The notes under the pieces were generated by a model, which saw only the letters and a program-made list of their open reading frames with translations, did not search any database and was not told the DNA's origin. Position numbers and translations under genes: made by a program. DNA of 10,583 nucleotides from Promethearchaeota archaeon (GTDB taxonomy: Archaea > Asgardarchaeota > Lokiarchaeia > Sigyniarchaeales > SOKP01), in assembly GCA_013375475.1 (NCBI GenBank), contig JABXKD010000105.1, forward strand, positions 1 through 10,583. The letters run 5' to 3'. Positions 1-10,583 of this stretch are shown piece after piece (the stretch's first letter is position 1; the number at the start of each line of letters is the position of its first letter).

Positions 1-656
1 AAATATCTTTCCGATAATAAACCTCCGCATAGAGTACCATATGCCAGGAGTTTAATATTATATTTTTTGCATATTGGAGCCATCAGTAGCTCTGGCCTCC
101 TGTCTACTAACGAATATTGAACTTGATTTGAAACGATATTAATTCCCATTTCTAAGAATTCTTCAGTATGTTCCGTGTCGAAATTAGTTAATCCTAAGGT
201 TGATAATACTCCGTCTTTCTGCAAATCATCTAAAAATGAAATTGCTTTAAGATAGTTCTTATCTTGATAATCCCACCAGTGAAATTGGAGCATATCTAAA
301 ACTTCCATTCCCATTCTTTTTCGAGAAATATCAATAGCCTTATTAACTAGTTCTCTTGTGATTTTTTGAGGTCTGGGCACCCATTTTGTAAAAAATTTTA
401 TATCCTCGAGGGAGGCTTCTTTTTGTTCATTAATTCTCTGCTCTCTGAAAATTTTAACAAAATCTTCAGCGGGACCGTAATGATCTGCTAAGTCCCAAGT
501 TGTAAATCCGTTATCTACATGCAAATTCATACTTTTTATTGCTTTATTTTTATTAATATAACCATGAGCTCCAGAAACTTGCCACATCCCGTTTAGAATA
601 CGGCAGATTTTAAGATTTGGGGTCAAAAATATTTTAGATTCCAGCGGTAAATTCAT
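1..656 (-). CDS. Aldo/keto reductase family protein (3' end runs off the window)
   Basis: Manual translation from ATG at 656: MNLPLESKIFLTPNLKICRILNGMWQVSG...GFTTWDLADHYGPAE...FFTKWVP...LDMLQFHWW...LGLTNFD...SNQVQYSLVDRRP...LLAYGTLCGGLLSERYF. The AKR tetrad (D, Y, K, H) and the NQVQYSL motif are present. An AGAGGA SD-like motif lies just upstream on the minus strand. Not in the ORF track because it is open at the edge. Confidence 0.92.
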   Translation of the reverse strand, partial: MNLPLESKIFLTPNLKICRILNGMWQVSGAHGYINKNKAIKSMNLHVDNGFTTWDLADHYGPAEDFVKIFREQRINEQKEASLEDIKFFTKWVPRPQKITRELVNKAIDISRKRMGMEVLDMLQFHWWDYQDKNYLKAISFLDDLQKDGVLSTLGLTNFDTEHTEEFLEMGINIVSNQVQYSLVDRRPELLMAPICKKYNIKLLAYGTLCGGLLSERY

Positions 657-809
657 AAAAATCCTCTTTTAAGTTGTTAATTCAATTATAATTAGTAAAA
701 ATGGTAAAGCTAAATTAAAAGAACTCTATAAAAATTATAAGATTTTGAATTAATAGCTTATAATAGAAAACTTTTTTTTGATTTTGATATACTAATTCTT
801 GGTTTTTTT

Positions 810-1550
810 ATGCTAGAGAATAAAGTCATAGTAATATTGGGGGCTACAGGAGGGATAGGTTCCGCAGTTGCTGAAAAAGCATCCAAGCTGGGCGCGAAAT
901 TAGTTCTAGTTGCTAGAAATTTAGCTGATTTGAAAGAGTTGGAAAATAGTTTGCAACATAGTATTTCAATTCAAGCAGATGTTACTAATTCCAATGATTT
1001 AAAGAGAATGGTAGAGGAAGTGGAAAGCAAATTTGGTAAAATAGACGTTTTAATACACGCCGTAGGATCCATTGTATTAAAACCGATCCATGTGCTAAAA
1101 ATTGAGGAATTTGAAGAAATTATAAAAATAAACCTAACTTCTGCGTTCTTGGCGATAAAGGCTGTTATAAGAGGAATGATAAGGAATAAAAGTGGATCCA
1201 TAATCGTTATCTCATCTGTAGCGGGATCAAAAGGGTTAAGGAATCATGAAGCGATTAGTGCCGCAAAAGGAGGTCTTGAAAGCATGATAAGGTCTGCAGC
1301 TAACACTTATGCTTCTAAAGGTATCAGATTCAATGGAGTTGCCTTAGGATTAGTTGATACGCCGTTAGCTGCCGGAGCTAAATTAACTACAAATGAGAAA
1401 GCTTTAGAAATTTCAAACAAAATGCATCCTTTAGGAAGAATTGGAAAACCTGAGGATATTGTGTATGCTATTTTATATTTAGCTTCAGATAATTCATCAT
1501 GGGTCACTGGAGCAATATTACCGATTGATGGGGGATTATCTGTAAATTAA
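810..1550 (+). CDS. Short-chain dehydrogenase/reductase (SDR), atypical active site
   Basis: Rossmann GATGGIG, ADVT, ISSVAG, and C-terminal HPLGRIGKPEDI...SSWVTGAILPIDGG. The YxxxK motif reads I149-SAA-K153. Confidence 0.93.
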   Translation: MLENKVIVILGATGGIGSAVAEKASKLGAKLVLVARNLADLKELENSLQHSISIQADVTNSNDLKRMVEEVESKFGKIDVLIHAVGSIVLKPIHVLKIEEFEEIIKINLTSAFLAIKAVIRGMIRNKSGSIIVISSVAGSKGLRNHEAISAAKGGLESMIRSAANTYASKGIRFNGVALGLVDTPLAAGAKLTTNEKALEISNKMHPLGRIGKPEDIVYAILYLASDNSSWVTGAILPIDGGLSVN

Positions 1551-1551
1551 A

Positions 1552-1830
1552 TTAAAATTGGGTTTTTTGCCATCTCTTAATTATTTCAAATGAATTTTCT
1601 AGATGATCTTTAATAACAAGGTAAAGCTCATCGTAAGATTTTACCATAATTAAAGGTCTAAAACGCAATAAAAAATTGTTATCAATAAAATTAACAAGGT
1701 TATCTCTTTTTTTTGGATCTAAATTGTTCCACAAATTTTTAATATAAATTATTCTTCTGTTTTTTTCTTCAATTAATTTACTATAAAACCACTCTTCAAA
1801 AGACTTTAAGTCCCTTAACGAATAAACCAT
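1552..1830 (-). CDS. Hypothetical protein (about 92 aa)
   Basis: Open frame filling the gap between the SDR and fasciclin genes, ending in TAA one base from the SDR stop. ATG at 1830 preferred over TTG at 1833. No recognisable motif. Confidence 0.6.
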   Translation of the reverse strand: MVYSLRDLKSFEEWFYSKLIEEKNRRIIYIKNLWNNLDPKKRDNLVNFIDNNFLLRFRPLIMVKSYDELYLVIKDHLENSFEIIKRWQKTQF

Positions 1831-1907
1831 CAAATAATAAAAAATAGTGAGGCTATTTATAGTAGCTTTTTCAAAAAAATAGTTATAACAATATACCGAA
1901 CAAAGTT

Positions 1908-1929
1908 AAAAAAAAAAAAGAATAAAAAA
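1908..1929 (-). terminator. Oligo-T terminator for the fasciclin gene
   Basis: Long A runs on the + strand (T runs on the - strand) 30-50 nt downstream of the fasciclin stop codon. Confidence 0.45.
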
Positions 1930-1960
1930 ACATTTTAATATTAGACCACTTGAGAAGATT

Positions 1961-2359
1961 TTAAGAAGGTAATATTACCTTATCAATAACGTGAATGATT
2001 CCGTTATCAGTTTCTATATCTGCTTTAATAACGGTTGCATCGTTCACTTTTACTCCACTAGTGGCATCTATGGTAATTTCCTGTCCTTGTAGAGTCTTCA
2101 CTTTCATAATACCTGAAAGATCAGTAGATTTCACTTTTCCTTCAACTCCATGGTATAAAAGAATTCCTTTTAATTTTTCGGGATCCATTAATAAAGAATT
2201 CAAAGTTTCAGAGGGAATCTTAGAAAAGGCATCATCAGTAGGAGCAAAGATAGTAAATGGTCCTCCAGATGATAATGTATCTACAAGTCCAGCTACTTCA
2301 GCAGCTTTTAATAAAGTAGAAAAATTACCAGCTTCCTTAGCTACTTGTACAATATTCAT
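1961..2359 (-). CDS. Single-domain fasciclin (FAS1) protein, no signal peptide
   Basis: NFSTLLKAAEVAGLVDTL, H1 motif FTIFAPTDDAF, LLYH, H2 motif NGIIHVIDKVILP. The domain starts immediately after Met1. Confidence 0.95.
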   Translation of the reverse strand: MNIVQVAKEAGNFSTLLKAAEVAGLVDTLSSGGPFTIFAPTDDAFSKIPSETLNSLLMDPEKLKGILLYHGVEGKVKSTDLSGIMKVKTLQGQEITIDATSGVKVNDATVIKADIETDNGIIHVIDKVILPS

Positions 2360-2640
2360 AATTAATAATTAATAAAAAAGTAAACTATTTAAGAATTATA
2401 ATTATAAAATGTTAACAGAAAATTTCTATAAAAAAAGGTGAATTTTCTTATTTGAGCGATTATATCCTTACTAGATTTAAATTAAGCGACCAAAACAATT
2501 TACTATATTAATTCGTTTAGGCAACCAATAATTAATAAAATATAAACTGAAAAATTGCACTCTTTAGAGGCTTTAAAATACAAGTAATTATAGCTTTTTA
2601 GAATACATGGTAAAATTTAAGAAAAGGAATAGCAAAGAAA

Positions 2641-2841
2641 TTGAACCAAAAACGATTTAGAAATATTTTAAAGAAGTAACAGAAAAAAGTACCTATCTTA
2701 TTCTGGATGAGTCGGGATCATGGTGGAGTTCATGATAGAGCATGGGGTGAAAGAAAAATCTTTGGGAAAATAAGGTATATGACCTATGAAGGAATGAAAA
2801 GAAAATTTAAGGTTAAAAAATATATTGAAAGCAATTTATAG
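2641..2841 (+). pseudogene. phr: Class II CPD DNA photolyase remnant (N-terminus fused to C-terminus, internal stop)
   Basis: Frame from TTG 2641 reads [26 protein letters not shown]|[44 protein letters not shown] is the class II photolyase N-terminal motif. [27 protein letters not shown] is the class II C-terminal signature, as I recall it for the Methanosarcina mazei enzyme. TAA at 2677-2679. Confidence 0.9.
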
Positions 2842-2860
2842 AAATATTAAGGGTTGAAAA

Positions 2861-3853
2861 ATGAATAATAAGAATTTTTTAAAACCCAAAGTAGTAATTA
2901 GCAAATGTATTGAATTTGAACATTGCAGATGGAATGGAAATATTATAAAAAGTAATTTTGTAAAAGTTTTAAAAACATACGTAGAATTTCATCCAGTTTG
3001 TGCTGAGGTTGAGATTGGACTGGGAGTACCACGGGAACCAATCAAAATTATAAAATCAGAAAGATTGAAGTTAATTCAACCCGCTACAATGAGAGAATAT
3101 ACCAAAAATATGGAAAAGTTTGCAGAAACATTTCTTACTTCAATAAGTGATATAGATGGTTTTATTATGAAATTTAAATCTCCTTCATGTGGTCTTTATG
3201 AGACTAAATACTACTACGATGAAAAACCTGGTTCCGCAGTCATAGAAAAAGGCGCGGGGTTATTTGGAAAAGCTGTATTGGATAAATTTCCTAATCTATC
3301 AATAGAAACTGAGGGAAGATTAATGAATCTTCGAATTAGAGAGCATTAGCTTACTAAAATGTACGTTTTAAGGTACTTCCGAACAATAAAGGACTCAGAA
3401 TCTTATAAAAGTCTGGTTGATTTTCATTCCCGAAACAAATTACTACTTATGGCATACAATCAGAATTTAATGAGGAAAATGGGAAAGATTGTAGCAAACC
3501 CAATAAAAGTGAATTTTTATTCCGTTGTTGAGGAGTACGAAAAGCTCTTAATCCAATCGTTAAGTCAACCCCCTGAGTATACTTCGCACATAAATGTATT
3601 GATGCATGCGTTTGGATACTTTAAAAAAATGTTAAGTAATCAAGAAAAAGCTTTTTTTTTAGATGAGCTTAAGAAGTACAGGACAGGATGGATTCCTATA
3701 TTTGTCATAAAGGAATTGATTAAATCCTGGATTGTTCGAAATGATGAACCGTATTTAAAGCGACAATCATATTTTAATCTATATCCCCCCGAGTTGATGA
3801 ATTTCGATATGAAAGATACTTGGAGAGGAAGATCCTATTGGGAAAAAAAGTAA
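2861..3853 (+). pseudogene. DUF523 (TudS thiouracil desulfidase)-DUF1722 (YbgA) fusion, RudS-like, interrupted by an in-frame TAG at 3347-3349
   Basis: ORFs 2861-3349 and 3359-3853 are in the same frame, with the junction REH*LTKMYVL. The N-half has SKC16..C22RWNG, C47AEVEIGLGVPREP and KSPSC110G (DUF523). The C-half has LVDFHSRNKLLLMAY, HINVLMHAFGYFKK and YLKRQSYF..YP (DUF1722). Read-through gives 330 aa. Could instead be two functional genes. Confidence 0.8.
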
Positions 3854-3865
3854 AAAATTAAAATG

Positions 3866-5122
3866 TTATTTTTGAATCTTAGCTTCGACTATTAAACCAA
3901 TGGGTTCAGCTTTTAGAGCTTTTTCTCTACCATCATATCCGAATTTTAATACCTTAAAACCAATAAGAAATGGTATAAGACTTAATAAACTCAGAACTAC
4001 TGCATATGGAATAGTTACAGCAAAAGAAAGTAAGACTCCACCGACAATTGGTCCTATAATTTGAGTTAGATTGTCTATTCCCGTAGTAATTCCCATTATT
4101 TTGCCTTGGTTTTGACTATCTACAGAACGACTAATAAATCCAGTGATGATTCCCTGAGACATTGACCCCGCAAAACTAATAAAAAACAACAAAATTACTA
4201 ATTCCCAGACTTGAGTTACCATTCCGAAGAATAAATATGCAACTATGTAAGTTCCTAATCCTAAGAGGGCAGTAATTGGGTCTCCAATTAATTTTCTAAC
4301 TCGATTGAATATCAATACCCTAAATATGATTTGATATATGCCTAAAAGCGCCAATAGAATTCCTACTACAAATGGATTTAATCCAAGTCGAATACCCGCG
4401 AATATGCTAAAGGTTGTTTGAAGAATTCCACCCGTGATTGCAATAAAACTATACTGAATGACGAGTGTTAAAGTTTTATTATTTTTCCAAATCGAAATCG
4501 ATTTCTTATTCAAATCAGGAGTTTCTATAACAACATCCTGCCATTTTGAATGAACTTTTTTAGGCAAGCTCTCTTCTAAATAGACTGTAGTGTAAACCAA
4601 GGAAAAACCTGTGAGAATAGCTGCAAGAATACCCGGCCAAATTAGACCGTAAGGTGATAATAATCCACCAATTGCGGGACCTATTAAGAATGCCAAACCA
4701 AAAGCGATTCCAATATTGGTCATCTGTTTTGGTCGCTCCTTCGGAGGTACTACATCACCTATTATTGCTTTTGCTATTGGAAATTGACCACTAAAAACTC
4801 CATCTACAATTCTAGCGATAAATAAAAGTAAGATGTTATTGGAAATTATCAAAATAATAAAACCTACTAAGGTTCCTGCTAAAGAAATCAACATTACAGG
4901 TTTCCGACCGTAATTATCGCTCAATTTCCCAAGGATAGGTCCAAAGAAAAAGCCAAAAATTGCATTCGAACTTAAAAGAAATCCAATTATTACTGGTGAA
5001 CTATTGAATTCTGCAATAAAAAAAGGCAAAAATGGTAGTATTATACTAAAACCAAGAATGTCTACAAAAACAGCAATCCAAAGAGGAGTTAGTTTCTGAT
5101 ATTCAGACTTTATCTTAATCAT
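3866..5122 (-). CDS. MFS transporter, DHA1/TetA-like drug:H+ antiporter family
   Basis: About 12 hydrophobic segments, TM1 FVDILGFSIILP, motif A GKLSDNYGRKPV, ARIVDG, antiporter motif GPAIGG. Confidence 0.92.
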   Translation of the reverse strand: MIKIKSEYQKLTPLWIAVFVDILGFSIILPFLPFFIAEFNSSPVIIGFLLSSNAIFGFFFGPILGKLSDNYGRKPVMLISLAGTLVGFIILIISNNILLLFIARIVDGVFSGQFPIAKAIIGDVVPPKERPKQMTNIGIAFGLAFLIGPAIGGLLSPYGLIWPGILAAILTGFSLVYTTVYLEESLPKKVHSKWQDVVIETPDLNKKSISIWKNNKTLTLVIQYSFIAITGGILQTTFSIFAGIRLGLNPFVVGILLALLGIYQIIFRVLIFNRVRKLIGDPITALLGLGTYIVAYLFFGMVTQVWELVILLFFISFAGSMSQGIITGFISRSVDSQNQGKIMGITTGIDNLTQIIGPIVGGVLLSFAVTIPYAVVLSLLSLIPFLIGFKVLKFGYDGREKALKAEPIGLIVEAKIQK

Positions 5123-5327
5123 AGTTAAATAGGTGAAATTACTGTATTAAGGCTTGAGATAATAAAAAATCTAATAATTTTATATAAGATCAATTAAAAA
5201 TAGGAAAAAATCCAATTTCATTTCTTTTTAATAAATAGTTCTAAATTCTATCAGAATCTATATCTAAGTCCAATTAAAAATTGTTTAAATTAAATCCATT
5301 TTTATAGCAAATTTTAATAATTCATAA

Positions 5328-5341
5328 GAAAATGGTTTAAA
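5328..5341 (+). promoter_or_regulatory. Putative archaeal BRE/TATA promoter of the Staygreen gene
   Basis: Purine-rich GAAAATGG followed by TTTAAA (5336-5341), about 30 nt upstream of ATG 5370, with no SD. This fits a leaderless or short-leader transcript. Weak evidence in AT-rich DNA. Confidence 0.35.
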
Positions 5342-5369
5342 CTTCTTGCTGTAATACTCTATTATAATA

Positions 5370-5834
5370 ATGTCAGATTTAAATCCTGATAAATTACATA
5401 TCGTTTATAAAGATTCGATAGATGAATTAACTCTAAAAATACCTCGCAAATACACCTTAACTCATTCTGATTCAACTGGAGATCTTTTTCTTACGATAGG
5501 TTCAGAGTACGATTTTGAACAAATTTCAAGTCTTTACACACGCTTCATGAGGGACGAGGTGTTAGCTGAATGGCAAAAGAATAACGATCATTACGAATTA
5601 CACATATATATGCATGTTAGTGGAGGTTTTTGTTTTGGTTGGGCGGGATTACGAGACAGAATCTTTTGCTATCACTTACCACTCGTACTTCAGGCATTTA
5701 CATATGGTGATAAGAAACTTATTGAGGAGATGCCCGAAATCGAAGATTCTCAGATTATCGTACATTTTCAATCTAAGAACAAGAAATATGATAGAATCGA
5801 GACTTTTGGACAAATTAAAGAAATTCATTGTTAA
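5370..5834 (+). CDS. Staygreen-family protein (SGR Mg-dechelatase homologue)
   Basis: Signature PRKYTLTHSDSTGDLFLTIG, RDEVLAEW, LHIYMHVSGG, LPLVLQAF.YGD and VHFQS are characteristic of the Staygreen domain. Confidence 0.93.
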   Translation: MSDLNPDKLHIVYKDSIDELTLKIPRKYTLTHSDSTGDLFLTIGSEYDFEQISSLYTRFMRDEVLAEWQKNNDHYELHIYMHVSGGFCFGWAGLRDRIFCYHLPLVLQAFTYGDKKLIEEMPEIEDSQIIVHFQSKNKKYDRIETFGQIKEIHC

Positions 5835-5852
5835 GAATTATAAATTCTTAAC
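5830..5852. repeat. Perfect 10-bp inverted repeat overlapping the Staygreen stop codon
   Basis: GTTAAGAATT-ATA-AATTCTTAAC. Confidence 0.7.
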
Positions 5853-5944
5853 TATAAGGGATTAAATTTTATAATGTTTAGGGCTCAACTCAGTAATAAA
5901 ATATTACCAGAGCCTACTTAAGATTTATCTGTTTTATTAGTAAT

Positions 5945-6547
5945 ATGGATGCAATTAGTAAGTTAGTAGAACAAGGTTATAATAGAATCGCTGAAGATTA
6001 TTATAGCCATCGGAATTTAAGCAAATTCAATAATGAGTTAGAGGAATTTGCGTCTTTACTCCCAAAAAATGCTCATACATTAGATGTAGGATGCGGTGCG
6101 GGCATTCCTACTGCGAAATTCCTGACAGAAAGAGGAATTAAGGTAACTGGCATTGATTTATCTGATAAAATGTTAAATTTAGCTCGAGATAATGTACCAA
6201 ATGCTAAATTCGTTAAAATGGACATGATCAAATTAGAATTTAACGAAAACACTTTTGATGGGATAATAAGCGTATTTGCGCTATTCCACGTTCCTAAGGA
6301 AAACCATTACGATGTGTTTAAGAAATTTTTTGAAATATTGAAACCGGGTGGTATTCTAATGATAAATTCAGGTGTCTCAGAATCAGAAGGGACTAGTAGA
6401 TTTTTCGGTGTTCCAATGTTTTGGAGTAATTTCAGCCCAAAAACTACTCTAGATCTCGTGAAAAAAGCAGGATTCTCAATAATCTCAGAAGCTGTTTTAG
6501 AACGAGGGGGAGAATATCAATATTGGGTTTTTGGAAAAAAATCGTAA
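5945..6547 (+). CDS. Class I SAM-dependent methyltransferase
   Basis: Motif I LDVGCGAG, VTGIDLS, FDGIISVFALFHVP, LKPGG. Confidence 0.95.
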   Translation: MDAISKLVEQGYNRIAEDYYSHRNLSKFNNELEEFASLLPKNAHTLDVGCGAGIPTAKFLTERGIKVTGIDLSDKMLNLARDNVPNAKFVKMDMIKLEFNENTFDGIISVFALFHVPKENHYDVFKKFFEILKPGGILMINSGVSESEGTSRFFGVPMFWSNFSPKTTLDLVKKAGFSIISEAVLERGGEYQYWVFGKKS

Positions 6548-6585
6548 TCTTATTCTTAAACGATTAAAAAGAAAGATTCCAAGCT

Positions 6586-7866
6586 TTAAGTTTTTCTTAA
6601 CTCCTTTAACTTGTCTTTTAATTGGTTAGCACTCGTGATTAAAATATTTTGTGCTATAAAGGACATTTCTTCTTTAGCGAGTATTTTTAAAATTTTAATC
6701 TTTAACTTGTAGGCAACAACTAAATCTGCAGAGTTTTCATCTGAACCCTTTATTAAGACATCAAGAAGGTGAAGAGCTAATTGGAATTTTTCTTCTTCAT
6801 ATAACTGCTTTGCTCTATTAAAAAAATTAGCCTGATCGGTAATTTTTAGTAATTCTTTTGCAATTTCCTCAGATTTAACAGGAAAAAGATCAGTTGGATT
6901 TCCAGTATCGTACCAACCGTGGTAAAGCCTGTATACATCGTGTATAGCAAAACGATACTCTCCGTATAGTGGTCTCAAATACTTGTGATTTTTAAACTTC
7001 TCAGGGTAAATATCAAGCATCTCGTGGTAAGTTTCTTCAAACCACTTTCCCTCATTCAATCTTTTAACAACTTCGTCGTGAACAAAATGCAATGCCTCTG
7101 CTGTGATTGATAACGCCTCTCTGATATCTTCTTTTTGCTCAAATAGAAAGCCATGTCCAGGGACTAGATATTCAGCTTTCTTTTCCAGCATTTTTTCCAT
7201 TGCTAAAGCCCAATCTTTGGCGTAACGCTGGACTCGAAATGGACTACCAATATTTGGATATGTGCTTATCATCAAATCTCCCGTAAACAACACCTTCTTT
7301 GCAGGGAAATACATCCAGATACTATCGTCGGTTTCACCTTTGTCGTGATAGAGCTCAAAGATATAGTTGCCTAATTTAAACTCATATTTTTCATTACCGT
7401 GAATAATTATGGTAGGTTCAAGAGCACTTTGTACGCTTTCAGAATCTGATTGCATAACTCCTACCGAAGCAAACTGTTGTTTATAGGTCCACATCTGGTG
7501 TGCATCTAACATTCGATATTTTGCAAATCTTTTTACAAGGTTCTCATGCGCAATTACTTGGGGCATTTCCCACCCGTTTCTTTTAGCTTCTTCAATAAAT
7601 GGAGCGTAACCAAGGCAATGGTCAAAATGCCCATGAGATAAGATAATATATTTGACCTGTTTGTCTGAAAATTCTCGAACTGCTTTAAATACTTGTGGAC
7701 CAAATAATCTTAGCGCTAAATCGAATAGAACTAAACCCTCATCAGTTTTTACAACACCTACATTTCCGAAAGCGCCTATAAAATAACACAAGCCATCAGC
7801 GAAAGGTTTTCTTTCGAATTTACCACGACCGAAGAATCCTTCCAATCCTTTTTCGATTTTACTCAT
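6586..7866 (-). CDS. Metallo-beta-lactamase-fold hydrolase, alkyl/aryl-sulfatase (SdsA-like)
   Basis: HxHxDH (SHGHFDH), GETDD, FTGD, PGHG, followed by LRPLYG...YRLYHGWYDTGNPTDLFP typical of the alkyl-sulfatase dimerisation region. Helical C-terminus. Confidence 0.85.
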   Translation of the reverse strand: MSKIEKGLEGFFGRGKFERKPFADGLCYFIGAFGNVGVVKTDEGLVLFDLALRLFGPQVFKAVREFSDKQVKYIILSHGHFDHCLGYAPFIEEAKRNGWEMPQVIAHENLVKRFAKYRMLDAHQMWTYKQQFASVGVMQSDSESVQSALEPTIIIHGNEKYEFKLGNYIFELYHDKGETDDSIWMYFPAKKVLFTGDLMISTYPNIGSPFRVQRYAKDWALAMEKMLEKKAEYLVPGHGFLFEQKEDIREALSITAEALHFVHDEVVKRLNEGKWFEETYHEMLDIYPEKFKNHKYLRPLYGEYRFAIHDVYRLYHGWYDTGNPTDLFPVKSEEIAKELLKITDQANFFNRAKQLYEEEKFQLALHLLDVLIKGSDENSADLVVAYKLKIKILKILAKEEMSFIAQNILITSANQLKDKLKELRKT

Positions 7867-7998
7867 TTTTCAATCAAATTTTCAAAAATTATTTGATAAA
7901 GATAACAATTCGTAATAAAGTTTAATAAATGCAAGTAAAAGTACATAAGAATATAGGACATTACTCTATAATATCCAAAGAATATTAGTAGTGATTTA

Positions 7999-9129
7999 AT
8001 GACTCAAACAGAAACCATATCCTTGGAAGATCAAATAAAACAGTTGGCTTTAGAAGAAGGAGCAGCACTAATCGGCATTTGTTCTGCTGAAAGCATTAAA
8101 GATAAAGAATTTTCAGACCCAAATTTTTTACTCCCCGGCGCTAAGTCAGTAATCAGCATCGCGATAAATTTTGATGATGAAAAAGTCAGCAAATATTTAT
8201 CAAAAGAAGAATACTTACCTCTATGTCATGAAGAGGGATATACAACTAAAAATCTAAAAAGAGTAGCTGAGAAAATAAAAATATTTCTTGTAGAAAAAGG
8301 ATTTGAAGCCCACAATTGCGATTGTAATTATGATTATAGAAATGTGAATAGGGCGAGTAAGGTCGTTGTCTCTAGTATTAGGACTTTAGTTGATCTCATA
8401 AATAAGAATATGAATAGAAACATAGATTTGACAACTCAAGAGGTAAAAACATTAAATCGGTTGAAAAAATTGATTTTACCGGGGCTTAGGAAAACACCAA
8501 TGCATTTAATACCCTCGCTATCACATCGGTGCGTCGCTGTTGCTGCAGGGATAGGAAGAATTGGATGGAGTGGAAATCTACTCACGGAAAAATATGGAGC
8601 ACGAGTTCTACTGAATTCAATTATAACAGATGCAGATTTAATACCCGATAAACCATTGAAAAACAATCCATGTACAAAATGTAAACTTTGTGAAAAAGCG
8701 TGCCAAGGAGGACTTTTTAGTAGGGATGAAGAACAAACAATTAAAATAGCGGGTATAGAAGAAACTATTGCGAAACGGAATAGTTATGCATATTGTATTG
8801 CTGTTTGTAGCGGAATGTCAGGTCAGAATAAGTTTAAAGAATGGTCGACTTGGTCTCCTTTTCGCTTTGATGGAATTGAGAACCTTCCTTTAGATAATTC
8901 TGTTGATGATTATGTTAAAAATATGTTCGCCGAAGGTATTAAAAAAGGAGGTCAACAAGCTGAAAACGTTTTAAGACTAGTTGCTAATACTTTTTTAGGC
9001 CGTAATAATAAACCTGCAGAAGATTTTAGACCTTCTTGTGGTTTTTGTCAAATGGTATGTTCGGGGAATGATTTAAATAAGACTAAAGAAAACTATAACC
9101 TCATAGTAAATTCTGGTTGTATTGAATAA
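7999..9129 (+). CDS. Cobalamin-dependent 2x[4Fe-4S] reductase of the QueG / reductive dehalogenase superfamily
   Basis: DPNFLLPGAKSVISIA, SHRCVAVAAGIGRIGWSGNLLTEKYGARVLLNSIITDA, C225xxCxxCxxxC235, C266/C270, C347xxCxxxC354. No twin-arginine signal. Confidence 0.85.
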   Translation: MTQTETISLEDQIKQLALEEGAALIGICSAESIKDKEFSDPNFLLPGAKSVISIAINFDDEKVSKYLSKEEYLPLCHEEGYTTKNLKRVAEKIKIFLVEKGFEAHNCDCNYDYRNVNRASKVVVSSIRTLVDLINKNMNRNIDLTTQEVKTLNRLKKLILPGLRKTPMHLIPSLSHRCVAVAAGIGRIGWSGNLLTEKYGARVLLNSIITDADLIPDKPLKNNPCTKCKLCEKACQGGLFSRDEEQTIKIAGIEETIAKRNSYAYCIAVCSGMSGQNKFKEWSTWSPFRFDGIENLPLDNSVDDYVKNMFAEGIKKGGQQAENVLRLVANTFLGRNNKPAEDFRPSCGFCQMVCSGNDLNKTKENYNLIVNSGCIE

Positions 9130-9372
9130 ACAAGTACTCCCATATTCTCTTTATTATAATTTACGATTCTTGTTCTAGTCATTTCCAAAGAAATCTTTAT
9201 ATAATACTAAATAGAAATATTGATTTTGAAAATCTCTATTAAGTTTTGTGGGATTTTTACCGCTTTTATTATAAGATTTATTGATTCTTTAATATGTTAA
9301 AAAACAAATCTTTAAAAACGAAATCAAATAACTTTAACAAGAATTTAATTAATTAGACAATTTTATAACGAT

Positions 9373-9383
9373 AAAGGAGAGGT
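9373..9383 (+). promoter_or_regulatory. Shine-Dalgarno sequence of the Lys-rich microprotein
   Basis: AAAGGAGAGGT ending 8 nt before ATG 9392; the strongest SD-like motif I see in front of any start codon in this window. Confidence 0.75.
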
Positions 9384-9391
9384 ATAATCTA

Positions 9392-9481
9392 ATGGCAAAA
9401 AAGAAAGCTCCGGCAAAAAAGAAAGCTCCGGCAAAAAAGAAAGCCCCAGCTAAGAAAAAAGCTCCAGCTAAGAAAAAATAA
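9392..9481 (+). CDS. 29-aa Lys/Ala/Pro repeat microprotein MAKKKAPAKKKAPAKKKAPAKKKAPAKKK (histone H1 tail-like)
   Basis: ATG to TAA with a strong SD and downstream T10 tract. All differences among the 18-nt repeat units are synonymous third-position changes. Confidence 0.85.
   Translation: MAKKKAPAKKKAPAKKKAPAKKKAPAKKK
9395..9478 (+). repeat. 18-nt tandem repeat, about 4.7 copies, coding AKKKAP
   Basis: gcaaaaaagaaagctccg x2, gcaaaaaagaaagcccca, gctaagaaaaaagctcca, gctaagaaaaaa. Confidence 0.95.
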
Positions 9482-9492
9482 CGATCTAATAG

Positions 9493-9523
9493 TGGAAAGA
9501 GATCGAACTTCCGTTTTTTTTTT
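9493..9523 (+). terminator. Hairpin plus T10 terminator after the microprotein
   Basis: TGGAAAG...CTTCCG imperfect stem directly followed by ten T (9514-9523). Confidence 0.65.
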
Positions 9524-9558
9524 ATTATTATTATTATAGTTTAATTACAGATTAAAAT

Positions 9559-9620
9559 GAAAGGAACTAATAATAGCGTTGAAAAAAAAAATATTCCTAG
9601 TGTTAGGAATAGCTCCTTTC
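9559..9620. repeat. Nested inverted repeats; includes a minus-strand terminator-like hairpin plus T10
   Basis: Outer GAAAGGAACTA (9559-9569) / TAGCTCCTTTC (9610-9620), 10 of 11 complementary. Inner perfect TATTCCTA-GTGT-TAGGAATA (9592-9611), preceded by A10 (9582-9591). Confidence 0.7.
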
Positions 9621-9654
9621 GATAAAAAGCTTAATATTGGTGAGACATGTAAAA

Positions 9655-10395
9655 ATGACTGTTAAAATAGTAAAAGATTATTATCTTAAAAGAACACCAA
9701 AATTGATGATGGAATTTTCTAAACACATAGAAGTTGCGAGAAATCTTCTAATAAGTAAGTTTTCTGATGATAAAATCAATGCGTTATTTACTGAAATGAA
9801 AGCCGAATATGAGAAGTTAATCCCAGAAATACCTTATATCGGAGGAAATAAAAATTCATTTACTAGTCTCCTTGTTGGTGGTATATCCAGTCTCGCTATT
9901 TTTTATGTTTTAGAAAGAGAGGGATTTAAACTTCGAGAAATTGGGGAATTCTATATTAAATTCCGAGATATAAATAACACAATCAGAAAAAGAAATCTGG
10001 AGAAAATTGGGAAAGATCCAGCTCAATATCCCTTTGAATCAGTCTATATTGATTATGCTAAAAAACTTTGCGAAACATCAAAATTAAGAAATTATCCAGA
10101 TGACTGGGTTGCGGATTATGTCGAGGGTGACGGCAGAACTTTTGAGTGGGGATTTAATTTTCACGAATGTGGAATTCAAAAAGTATTGAAGAGGTTGGAT
10201 GCTGAAAGATTTGTTCCTTTTTTTTGTTTAGCTGACTTTTCTGAAGCAAATATTTTAGGATTTGGATTCTCTCGTACTCAAACCTTGGGATTTGGTGCCC
10301 CTTTATGTGACCATAGGTATGTAAAAAATTATGAAACTCCCAGCGGATGGCCACCAGACGACTTCCCGGAATTTAACAAAAACCTGATTCCATAA
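9655..10395 (+). CDS. L-2-amino-thiazoline-4-carboxylic acid hydrolase (ATC_hydrolase) family protein, function uncertain
   Basis: IPYIGG.KN, FHECGIQK, FCLADF and RTQTLGFGAPLCDHRY motifs. ATG 9655 is preceded by GGTGA (9639-9643), so it is preferred over TTG 9637. Confidence 0.8.
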   Translation: MTVKIVKDYYLKRTPKLMMEFSKHIEVARNLLISKFSDDKINALFTEMKAEYEKLIPEIPYIGGNKNSFTSLLVGGISSLAIFYVLEREGFKLREIGEFYIKFRDINNTIRKRNLEKIGKDPAQYPFESVYIDYAKKLCETSKLRNYPDDWVADYVEGDGRTFEWGFNFHECGIQKVLKRLDAERFVPFFCLADFSEANILGFGFSRTQTLGFGAPLCDHRYVKNYETPSGWPPDDFPEFNKNLIP

Positions 10396-10415
10396 ATATC
10401 ATAGTTGAGTTATCT

Positions 10416-10583
10416 ATGAACGAAAAGAAAGACCAGAAAGTCTTAGATAATTTAAAAGTCCTTTTTGAGCAAGTTTTTAAAAAAGAAAGAAGCGAGTCGT
10501 ATCGAGATATCTTCCGAGAAGTATATGGAGATGATTATCCCGAAGATGCTAACCCAGATAGCTTCGTTACAATTACTGATTTG
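10416..10583 (+). CDS. Probable class I SAM-dependent methyltransferase, N-terminal part (truncated by window)
   Basis: MNEKKDQKVLDNLKVLFEQVFKKERSESYRDIFREVYGDDYPEDANPDSFVTITDL, open to the window edge. IFREVYGDDYP..SFVT..DL resembles the leader preceding motif I in a methyltransferase subfamily, but motif I itself is not visible. Confidence 0.6.
   Translation, partial: MNEKKDQKVLDNLKVLFEQVFKKERSESYRDIFREVYGDDYPEDANPDSFVTITDL

Follow-up and report, generated by a model that had tools for sequence, protein, structure and literature searches.

A probable stand-alone, histone-tail-like microprotein gene in one family of Loki-type Asgard archaea

We analysed a 10,583-nucleotide (nt) stretch of DNA from a Promethearchaeota archaeon (GenBank assembly GCA_013375475.1, contig JABXKD010000105.1, positions 1 to 10,583 of the forward strand; hereafter, the window) and found that it carries, at 9392..9481 on the forward strand, a 29-codon open reading frame (ORF) that is in all likelihood a real protein-coding gene. 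This ORF, which runs from an ATG start to a TAA stop and is referred to below as the microgene, encodes MAKKK(APAKKK)4 (MAKKKAPAKKKAPAKKKAPAKKKAPAKKK), a microprotein that begins exactly as a tailed histone of the same genome begins. Comparison of orthologues from three genera indicates a conserved cassette around the ORF and purifying selection on the peptide, and the presence or absence of the cassette in close relatives marks the gene as accessory.

The microgene and its likeness to a histone tail

The microprotein is made of 15 lysines, 9 alanines, 4 prolines and 1 methionine, with no acidic residue, as an earlier note on this DNA, made from its letters only, had counted. By composition it also contains no arginine and no hydrophobic residue, and its computed mass, net charge and isoelectric point are ~3.1 kDa, ~+14.5 and ~11.2. 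The ATG at 9392 is the sole possible start, as the stop-to-stop frame of 42 codons holds no other ATG, GTG or TTG. The microgene sits in a 507-nt gap between an ORF ending at 9129 and an ORF starting at 9637, which agrees with the earlier description of a 29-codon ORF with a Shine-Dalgarno site and a T10 run in a gap of ~500 nt. Using Tandem Repeats Finder, we found an 18-nt tandem unit in 4.0-4.7 copies; units 1 and 2 are exactly the same, units 3 and 4 are one base apart, and all differences between units are synonymous, again as previously described. Among all stop-to-stop frames of the 3.92-Mb host genome, this frame is the only one in which at least 17 of 20 residues are K, A or P.

The earlier note had compared the peptide with histone tails by analogy, and the analogy proved to be literal. 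The first ten residues of the microprotein are identical to those of the host tailed histone (77 amino acids (aa), contig C282), and 27 of the first 30 nucleotides of the two genes are the same. No remnant of a histone fold follows the microgene: tblastn of the host tailed histone against 9130-9640 aligned residues 1-22 only, on the repeat, and the next best match had an E value of 0.1. The ORF stops after 29 codons and has no Pfam match, which places it outside the histone-fold family (PF00808), and all 15 family genomes in which we found the gene keep the same stop; the lack of a remnant and the shared stop show that the microgene is not the broken tail of a longer gene, a possibility raised previously. 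The same start is widespread on tailed histones. Of 94 stretches encoding a MAKKKAPAKK start in named public genomes, 37 are tailed histones of 77-94 aa in low-GC archaeal records, including one in Ca. Lokiarchaeum ossiferum. The host histone genes likewise have a strong Shine-Dalgarno site.

The tails of Loki histones have recently been described in a preprint, which reports that these histones are abundant and co-localise with DNA (10.64898/2026.07.02.735847). The same source describes methyl-lysine on the tails, for example AKKKTPAKK with K9me1, the tail peptide of L. ossiferum HLoB.2, and reports that free synthetic 26-residue tail peptides are substrates in vitro for acetylation by an acetyltransferase, LoHAT2, and for deacetylation by a sirtuin, LoSIR2b (10.64898/2026.07.02.735847). 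Residues 2-10 of the microprotein (AKKKAPAKK) are one substitution away from the methylated HLoB.2 peptide reported there (10.64898/2026.07.02.735847). In the host genome, two matches to the SIR2 family and two to the SET domain exceed the Pfam cut-offs, though these families are broad and the matches do not imply orthology to the characterised enzymes.

Three further observations concern tails and Lys/Ala/Pro repeats. At one locus (L080:1236-1560), the coding sequence of a tailed histone is broken after ..YIAK by an in-frame insert of ~30 nt that contains a stop, beyond which the histone fold resumes in the same frame; a misassembly, a pseudogene or a small intervening sequence could each account for this. 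Six family genomes (L041, L042, L045, L047, L048 and L050) encode an RNA polymerase subunit A' (Rpb1 domains 2-5 by Pfam) that ends in a (PAKKA)n-type repeat, followed by a conserved module of ~30 residues, ETGKNAIWRGK..TK.F.EWK, that has no Pfam name. This module is also found as a 44-residue stand-alone protein headed by MAKKKAPAKK (L143), and a 351-residue protein that has a PAKK linker contains two copies of it (L049). The head carried by the L143 protein means that MAKKKAPAKK occurs in at least three contexts, namely by itself, on the histone fold and on this module.

A conserved cassette with promoter, leader and oligo-T run

In an alignment of five same-genus loci, the sequences are alignable across ~9292-9530 only and the flanks are not recognisably homologous. 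We therefore delimited a conserved cassette at 9292..9530 (forward strand) that comprises promoter, leader, ORF and oligo-T run. A TATA-box-like element, TTTAAAAA, lies after an A-rich stretch at 9311..9318 on the forward strand and is invariant in the five loci. Across orthologous loci of three genera, such a box (TTTAAAAA, TTTAAATA or TTTATATA) is found 73-81 nt 5' of the ATG in 14 of 16 cases, and the remaining two carry TTTAATAA or TTTATTAA at this position. Given this element, transcription is predicted to start near 9340, with a leader of ~50 nt that would contain the Shine-Dalgarno site.

The Shine-Dalgarno motif GGAGAGG (9376..9382, forward strand) is complementary to CCUCC at the 3' end of 16S rRNA, which reads GGATCACCTCCT in the host. 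GGAG or GAGG is found upstream of 13.6% of 2716 long host ORFs, compared with 8.3% at random positions, and the most common spacing is 11-14 nt before the ATG; the last motif of the microgene starts 13 nt before its ATG. Orthologous ORFs are preceded by a GGAG/AGAGG-type motif at 10-17 nt.

Downstream of the ORF, a T10 run (9514..9523, forward strand) is a likely archaeal oligo-T terminator. In 14 of 15 orthologues, the 77 nt that follow the stop include a run of at least seven Ts, as do 4.9% of 77-nt windows placed at random; the remaining orthologue has two T6 runs, and a sixteenth locus has T9 after the stop, so that all 16 loci have an oligo-T run 3' of the stop codon. The earlier note had also proposed a terminator hairpin, and this part of the claim was not borne out: the hairpin beside the T10 run (-5.3 kcal/mol) is no better than chance (z = 0.17, with 108 of 200 shuffled sequences folding at least as well), and a terminator scan returned 0 sites. 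Termination by archaeal RNA polymerase at oligo-T does not require a hairpin. We also observed an A10 run at 9582-9591, 58 nt downstream of the T10 run and perfectly complementary to it.

One RNA-library run (small share) gave a 48-nt contig that lies with 1 mismatch on the repeat at 9440-9478, as well as a 157-nt exact contig in the gene downstream of the microgene; neither contig is counted here as evidence of transcription. Three DNA runs, from marine-sediment and subsurface metagenomes, were examined, and the contigs of one of them break at the repeat, with loose ends at 9394-9482.

Coding signal and selection on the peptide

To assess the coding signal, we aligned 15 orthologues, giving 3222 aligned codon pairs. 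Pairwise differences at codon positions 1, 2 and 3 numbered 197, 189 and 1516, third positions thus differing 8-fold more often, and the variable columns by codon position were 10, 10 and 32 of 34. We counted 1353 synonymous and 247 non-synonymous codon differences. Length differences between orthologues are in whole codons only. The K and P positions are the best conserved, and the A positions tolerate V, T, S, G or P. These codon comparisons indicate that the peptide is under purifying selection in this frame.

A second signal concerns the writing of the lysine triplets. Across 16 genes, only 6 of 72 KKK triplets are written AAA-AAA-AAA, compared with expected numbers of ~32 under genome-wide codon usage and ~21 under that of the family itself; 6 or fewer such triplets were reached in 0 of 2000 simulations. 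As AAG interrupts the poly(A) runs, long poly(A) seems to be avoided, as would be the case for a frame that needs faithful transcription and translation. Selection on the peptide, which the earlier note had read from the repeat units of a single gene, is thus upheld both by the excess of synonymous differences between orthologues and by the avoidance of poly(A).

Distribution among relatives

We searched the genus and the order with a back-translated PAKK-x-PAKK pattern, using the reversed pattern as a control. In the genus, 10 of 42 genomes had pattern matches (reversed control, 0). In the order, there were matches in 29 of 154 genomes, all in the host family (reversed control, 1); broken down by family, and with the host itself excluded, these were 28 of 134 host-family genomes and 0 of 19 genomes in three other families. 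Reading frames were read at one or two places per pattern-positive genome, with four further places left out. The matches fell into three main classes: stand-alone ORFs of 28-35 codons starting MAKKKAPAKK, found in 14 genomes; N-terminally tailed histones; and the C-terminal extension of RNA polymerase subunit A'. Outside these classes were a small number of other proteins, a fragment of 11 residues lying at the edge of a contig, and one divergent variant 80 residues long. This variant, MAKKTTVRKRPPAKK... (L010:30-272, reverse strand), occurs in one genome of the genus, has PPAKK and PTTPKK units, and lies near a contig end, where it is followed by an A-run.

We then ran a profile built from 15 microproteins over 400 genomes of the phylum. 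Short open frames (at most 56 aa) were found in 13 genomes, all of the host family and one of them new, while the 265 phylum genomes outside the family gave two profile matches only, in frames of 316 and 470 aa. The first-look filter of this search missed at least 2 pattern-positive genomes, so its sensitivity is limited. Altogether, the search for short (APAKKK)n-type ORFs that the earlier note had suggested yielded intact stand-alone orthologues of 28-37 codons in 15 of 135 host-family genomes, belonging to three genera (g1, g21 and g22). Among the 94 MAKKKAPAKK-start stretches in named public genomes, 13 are stand-alone Asgard-type copies, which overlap the family set in species and are not independent of it. 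Metagenome contigs contributed four further stand-alone copies among 12 stretches, and one such contig is collinear with the window over 6832-9595 (2.8 kb) at 83% identity.

The microgene keeps its place in several species groups while neighbouring proteins have diverged to 64-90% identity. In five other genomes of the genus, the upstream 376-aa gene is present, but no microgene lies less than 1.5 kb from it. A reading of the cassette as a mobile element was rejected, since neither terminal inverted repeats nor target duplications were convincingly present. Because the contigs of one run break at the repeat, the gene may seem absent from some genomes through an artefact of assembly.

Comparison with known families and catalogues

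An exact look-up of ten of these peptides, the window's own included, in a collection of 15 billion proteins returned none (0/10), consistent with the earlier description of a self-contained gene that gene callers pass over. A profile search of 1.84 billion representatives gave 4 matches only, all in longer proteins of 181-383 aa, and a natural 80-aa relative, compared with shorter proteins, had no match at E <= 0.01. In Pfam, no family matched the microprotein at E <= 1 save DUF1388 (E = 0.36, below the cut-off), and Rfam returned nothing at E <= 1. The ESM Atlas lists look-alike clusters of 30-38-aa 'hypothetical proteins' with scores of 0.95-0.96, given without sequences or taxa, which we treat as a lead only. 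Full-text literature searches on Asgard histone tails, PAKK in archaea and Asgard small proteins found no description of a tail-only gene, and the main text of the tailed-histone preprint contains 0 occurrences of microprotein, standalone, stand-alone or small protein (10.64898/2026.07.02.735847).

The nearest known relatives in kind are the Asgard tailed histones (HLoB/HMpB type), which share with the microprotein a Lys-rich, Pro-punctuated and presumably disordered sequence. In contrast to them, the microprotein lacks a histone fold and is encoded separately, under a predicted promoter and terminator of its own; it has 4-5 repeat units where the tails have one or two; and it is limited to part of one family, compared with a wide occurrence of the tailed histone. 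The C-terminal domain of linker histone H1, with its minor-groove motifs of the SPKK/PAKK type, is also Lys/Ala/Pro-rich and neutralises DNA charge. The microprotein resembles this tail in its Lys/Ala/Pro composition and strong positive charge, a likeness of composition only, with no demonstrable homology; it differs from H1/H5 in having no winged-helix globular domain and in being 29 residues long, compared with ~100.

Lys/Ala/Pro repeats appended to DNA-binding domains are well known in bacteria, such as in the tails of mycobacterial HupB/Hlp and Pseudomonas AlgP. These proteins and chlamydial Hc2 (PF07382) have the same repeat chemistry as the microprotein, but in the bacterial H1-like proteins the repeats are appended to folded DNA-binding domains. 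The microprotein itself has no HC2 (PF07382) match, and sub-threshold HC2 matches were seen only in larger PAKK-repeat proteins of its relatives. HU-like proteins of Pseudomonadales/Gammaproteobacteria, ~130-168 aa long, start with MAKKKAPAKK(K)APAKK ahead of a DNA-binding fold and thus have the same MAKKKAPAKKKAPAKK head as the microprotein (L074, L077, L081, L099, L104-L107, L123, L124, L232, L233 and L235). Protamines are tiny, free-standing, extremely basic proteins that condense DNA. The microprotein is likewise tiny, free-standing and extremely basic, but it is Lys-based with 0 Arg, and it is archaeal. By resemblance, then, the microgene is best described as a stand-alone version of the Lys/Ala/Pro DNA-binding-tail kind, one that falls outside the H1, Hc2, protamine and histone-fold families.

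Uncalled ORFs of 22-28 codons with a MAKKKAPAKK start were also observed in high-GC records of Chloroflexi/Dormibacterota type (L096, L117, L140, L150 and L151) and on one metagenome contig (L241). Each of these bacterial microgenes has a strong AAGGAGG motif and a leader of conserved sequence (..GGCTACC..GTTGCC..), and each is followed by a hairpin terminator rich in GC. They share the head, size, stand-alone state and strong Shine-Dalgarno site with the archaeal microgene, but they are GC-rich, end in hairpin terminators and have a different conserved leader, and are probably analogous rather than homologous to it.

Host genome and neighbourhood

The host assembly comprises 288 contigs (3.92 Mb, 32.5% GC). 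It contains archaeal small-subunit (SSU) rRNA and four histone-fold genes. Cassettes whose peptides and leaders nearly match those of the host occur in low-GC public records, most of them assigned to Promethearchaeota, and this phylum is placed under the kingdom Promethearchaeati; the host is thus very probably an Asgard archaeon of Loki type, as the earlier note had allowed for in a conditional remark. Orthologues of the neighbouring 376-aa gene, at 68-73% identity, are found in five genomes of the host genus, which shows that the contig belongs to that genus. The assembly has two different SSU rRNA genes (C222:102936-104338 and C263:2265-3749), which score 1238 and 1043 bits on the archaeal model and have differing 3' flanks; with a stated contamination of 6.41%, a second organism in the bin is possible. 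Elsewhere in the window, 5370-5834 (forward strand) encodes a 154-aa Staygreen-family protein (PF12638, E = 1.3e-48), a family unusual for an archaeon.

Across the orthologous loci, there is no recurrent partner gene beside the microgene; the neighbours are metabolic or unknown and differ between groups. In a single carrier, which is among the closest orthologues by leader and terminator, the upstream neighbour is an ornithine/arginine/diaminopimelate (DAP) decarboxylase of the polyamine-pathway type (L169:132-1274, reverse strand), placing two kinds of polycation side by side.

Interpretation and alternative explanations

If the gene is real, a role at chromatin or DNA is somewhat favoured over other roles. 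More specifically, we consider it about an even call that the product of the microgene is a diffusible polycation, uncoupled from the histone fold, whose charge lets it bind DNA or histone-DNA fibres. In such a scheme, the microgene would be transcribed independently from its own TATA-like promoter ~75 nt upstream, through a ~50-nt leader, to the oligo-T terminator. Once translated, and with the initiator methionine removed, the product would be an unstructured Lys/Ala/Pro peptide of 28 residues, ~3 kDa and ~+15 charge, expected to bind nucleic acid electrostatically and without sequence specificity. Its main target would be DNA or histone-DNA fibres, given the histone-packaged, AT-rich genome, where it may offset the charge of the phosphates in the manner of a histone tail or of the C-terminal domain of H1. 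As a diffusible peptide, its dose could be adjusted separately from that of the histone fold.

Several findings weigh against this interpretation. The microgene is present in only 15 of the 135 family genomes and in 0 of the 265 other genomes of the phylum, and pattern and profile searches found no stand-alone copy in the cultured Lokiarchaeum ossiferum. When two carriers are compared with one close non-carrier, the flanks are 82-89% identical, and in place of the 678 nt that lie between them in the carrier there are 74 nt in the non-carrier; such a clean absence from a close relative means that the microgene is dispensable, and the gene is therefore accessory. No conserved neighbour at the loci of the orthologues points to chromatin. 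The peptide uses only three residue types, so its likeness to the histone tail could be convergent, and the regions upstream of the microgene and of the host tailed histone are not alike. Finally, the orthologues are kin rather than independent samples, so the codon statistics overstate their support.

The rival that survives best, though we hold it to be improbable, is that the peptide is an RNA- or ribosome-associated polycation that binds rRNA, tRNA or mRNA, either as a chaperone or as an accessory peptide of the ribosome. Very small and very basic peptides are typical of ribosomal accessory proteins, the strong Shine-Dalgarno site is like that of the host histone genes, and charge-driven binding cannot tell RNA from DNA. 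However, a patchy occurrence inside one family with a clean absence from a close relative is unlike that of a ribosome component, within the limited sensitivity of the searches; there is neither a Pfam match nor a ribosomal or RNA-processing neighbour, and the sequence identity is with a histone tail.

It is also rather unlikely that the free peptide acts as a mimic of the tail, that is, as a substrate or decoy for the lysine enzymes and readers of histone tails that would tune modification without compacting DNA. The single position that separates residues 2-10 from the K9me1 peptide of HLoB.2, and the in vitro modification of free 26-residue tail peptides by LoHAT2 and LoSIR2b, would both fit such a role (10.64898/2026.07.02.735847), as would the two SIR2-family and two SET-domain matches in the host. 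This role is pure inference, however, and the SIR2 and SET enzyme families are broad; a decoy would moreover be expected to co-occur with the tail system, yet the tail system is far more widespread than the microgene.

We give a similarly low probability to a young functionless cassette, either a duplicated 5' end of a histone gene or a slipped repeat with a frame open by chance, making little or no product. A low-complexity tandem repeat of variable repeat number, a patchy distribution with clean presence or absence between close relatives, and peptides absent from the protein catalogues searched are all what such a cassette would show. The 8-fold excess of third-position differences, the whole-codon insertions and deletions and the avoidance of poly(A) runs argue against it, as do the conservation of promoter box, Shine-Dalgarno site and T-run across three genera and a syntenic place kept while the neighbouring proteins stand at 64-90% identity.

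An exported, antimicrobial or antiviral polycation, acting outside chromatin on competitors or incoming nucleic acid, is very unlikely. Polylysine-like peptides are generally antimicrobial, and the accessory, patchy, cassette-like distribution in variable contexts would suit one. However, with no hydrophobic residue the microprotein has no signal or membrane segment, and we saw no recurrent transporter, immunity, defence or viral neighbours and no terminal repeats or target duplications. The last alternative, that the element is a lysine-sensing leader peptide or attenuator for a downstream gene, or else a DNA repeat or a non-coding RNA, is already largely refuted. A superficial likeness to a bacterial attenuator comes from the T-run behind an ORF in which 15 of 29 codons specify Lys. 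At 7 of 16 loci, however, the nearest downstream gene lies on the opposite strand, and the groups do not share related downstream genes; the hairpin folds no better than shuffled sequence, Rfam is null, and the codon-position pattern fits the reading frame of the microgene only.

Significance for Asgard chromatin

We can speculate one step further, to a reading that we regard as a long shot: that the microgene is a genetically separate histone tail. The same MAKKKAPAKK head is found by itself, in front of the histone fold and in front of a second small module, a pattern that would fit tailed histones having arisen when a portable polycation gene was joined to the fold; the free peptide could still act in trans as a tail for tail-less histone fibres, or serve as a diffusible substrate or decoy of the Asgard lysine writer/eraser system. 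Any lysine modification of the microprotein would follow by analogy with the tails. The earlier suggestion that such a gene bears on the origin of H1 and histone tails in general is weakened, as the gene is patchy and dispensable.

Interest in the microgene is tempered by its being accessory and confined to part of one uncultured family. Conserved polybasic microgenes of this kind in Asgard archaea, and analogous ones in some bacteria, are systematically missed by gene callers and by tryptic proteomics. The peptide is cheap to synthesise, which makes the finding cheaply testable. Asgard tailed histones and their lysine marks have only recently been described, and a tail-only gene would offer an experimental handle on what the tails do alone and on whether fusion or duplication gave rise to them.

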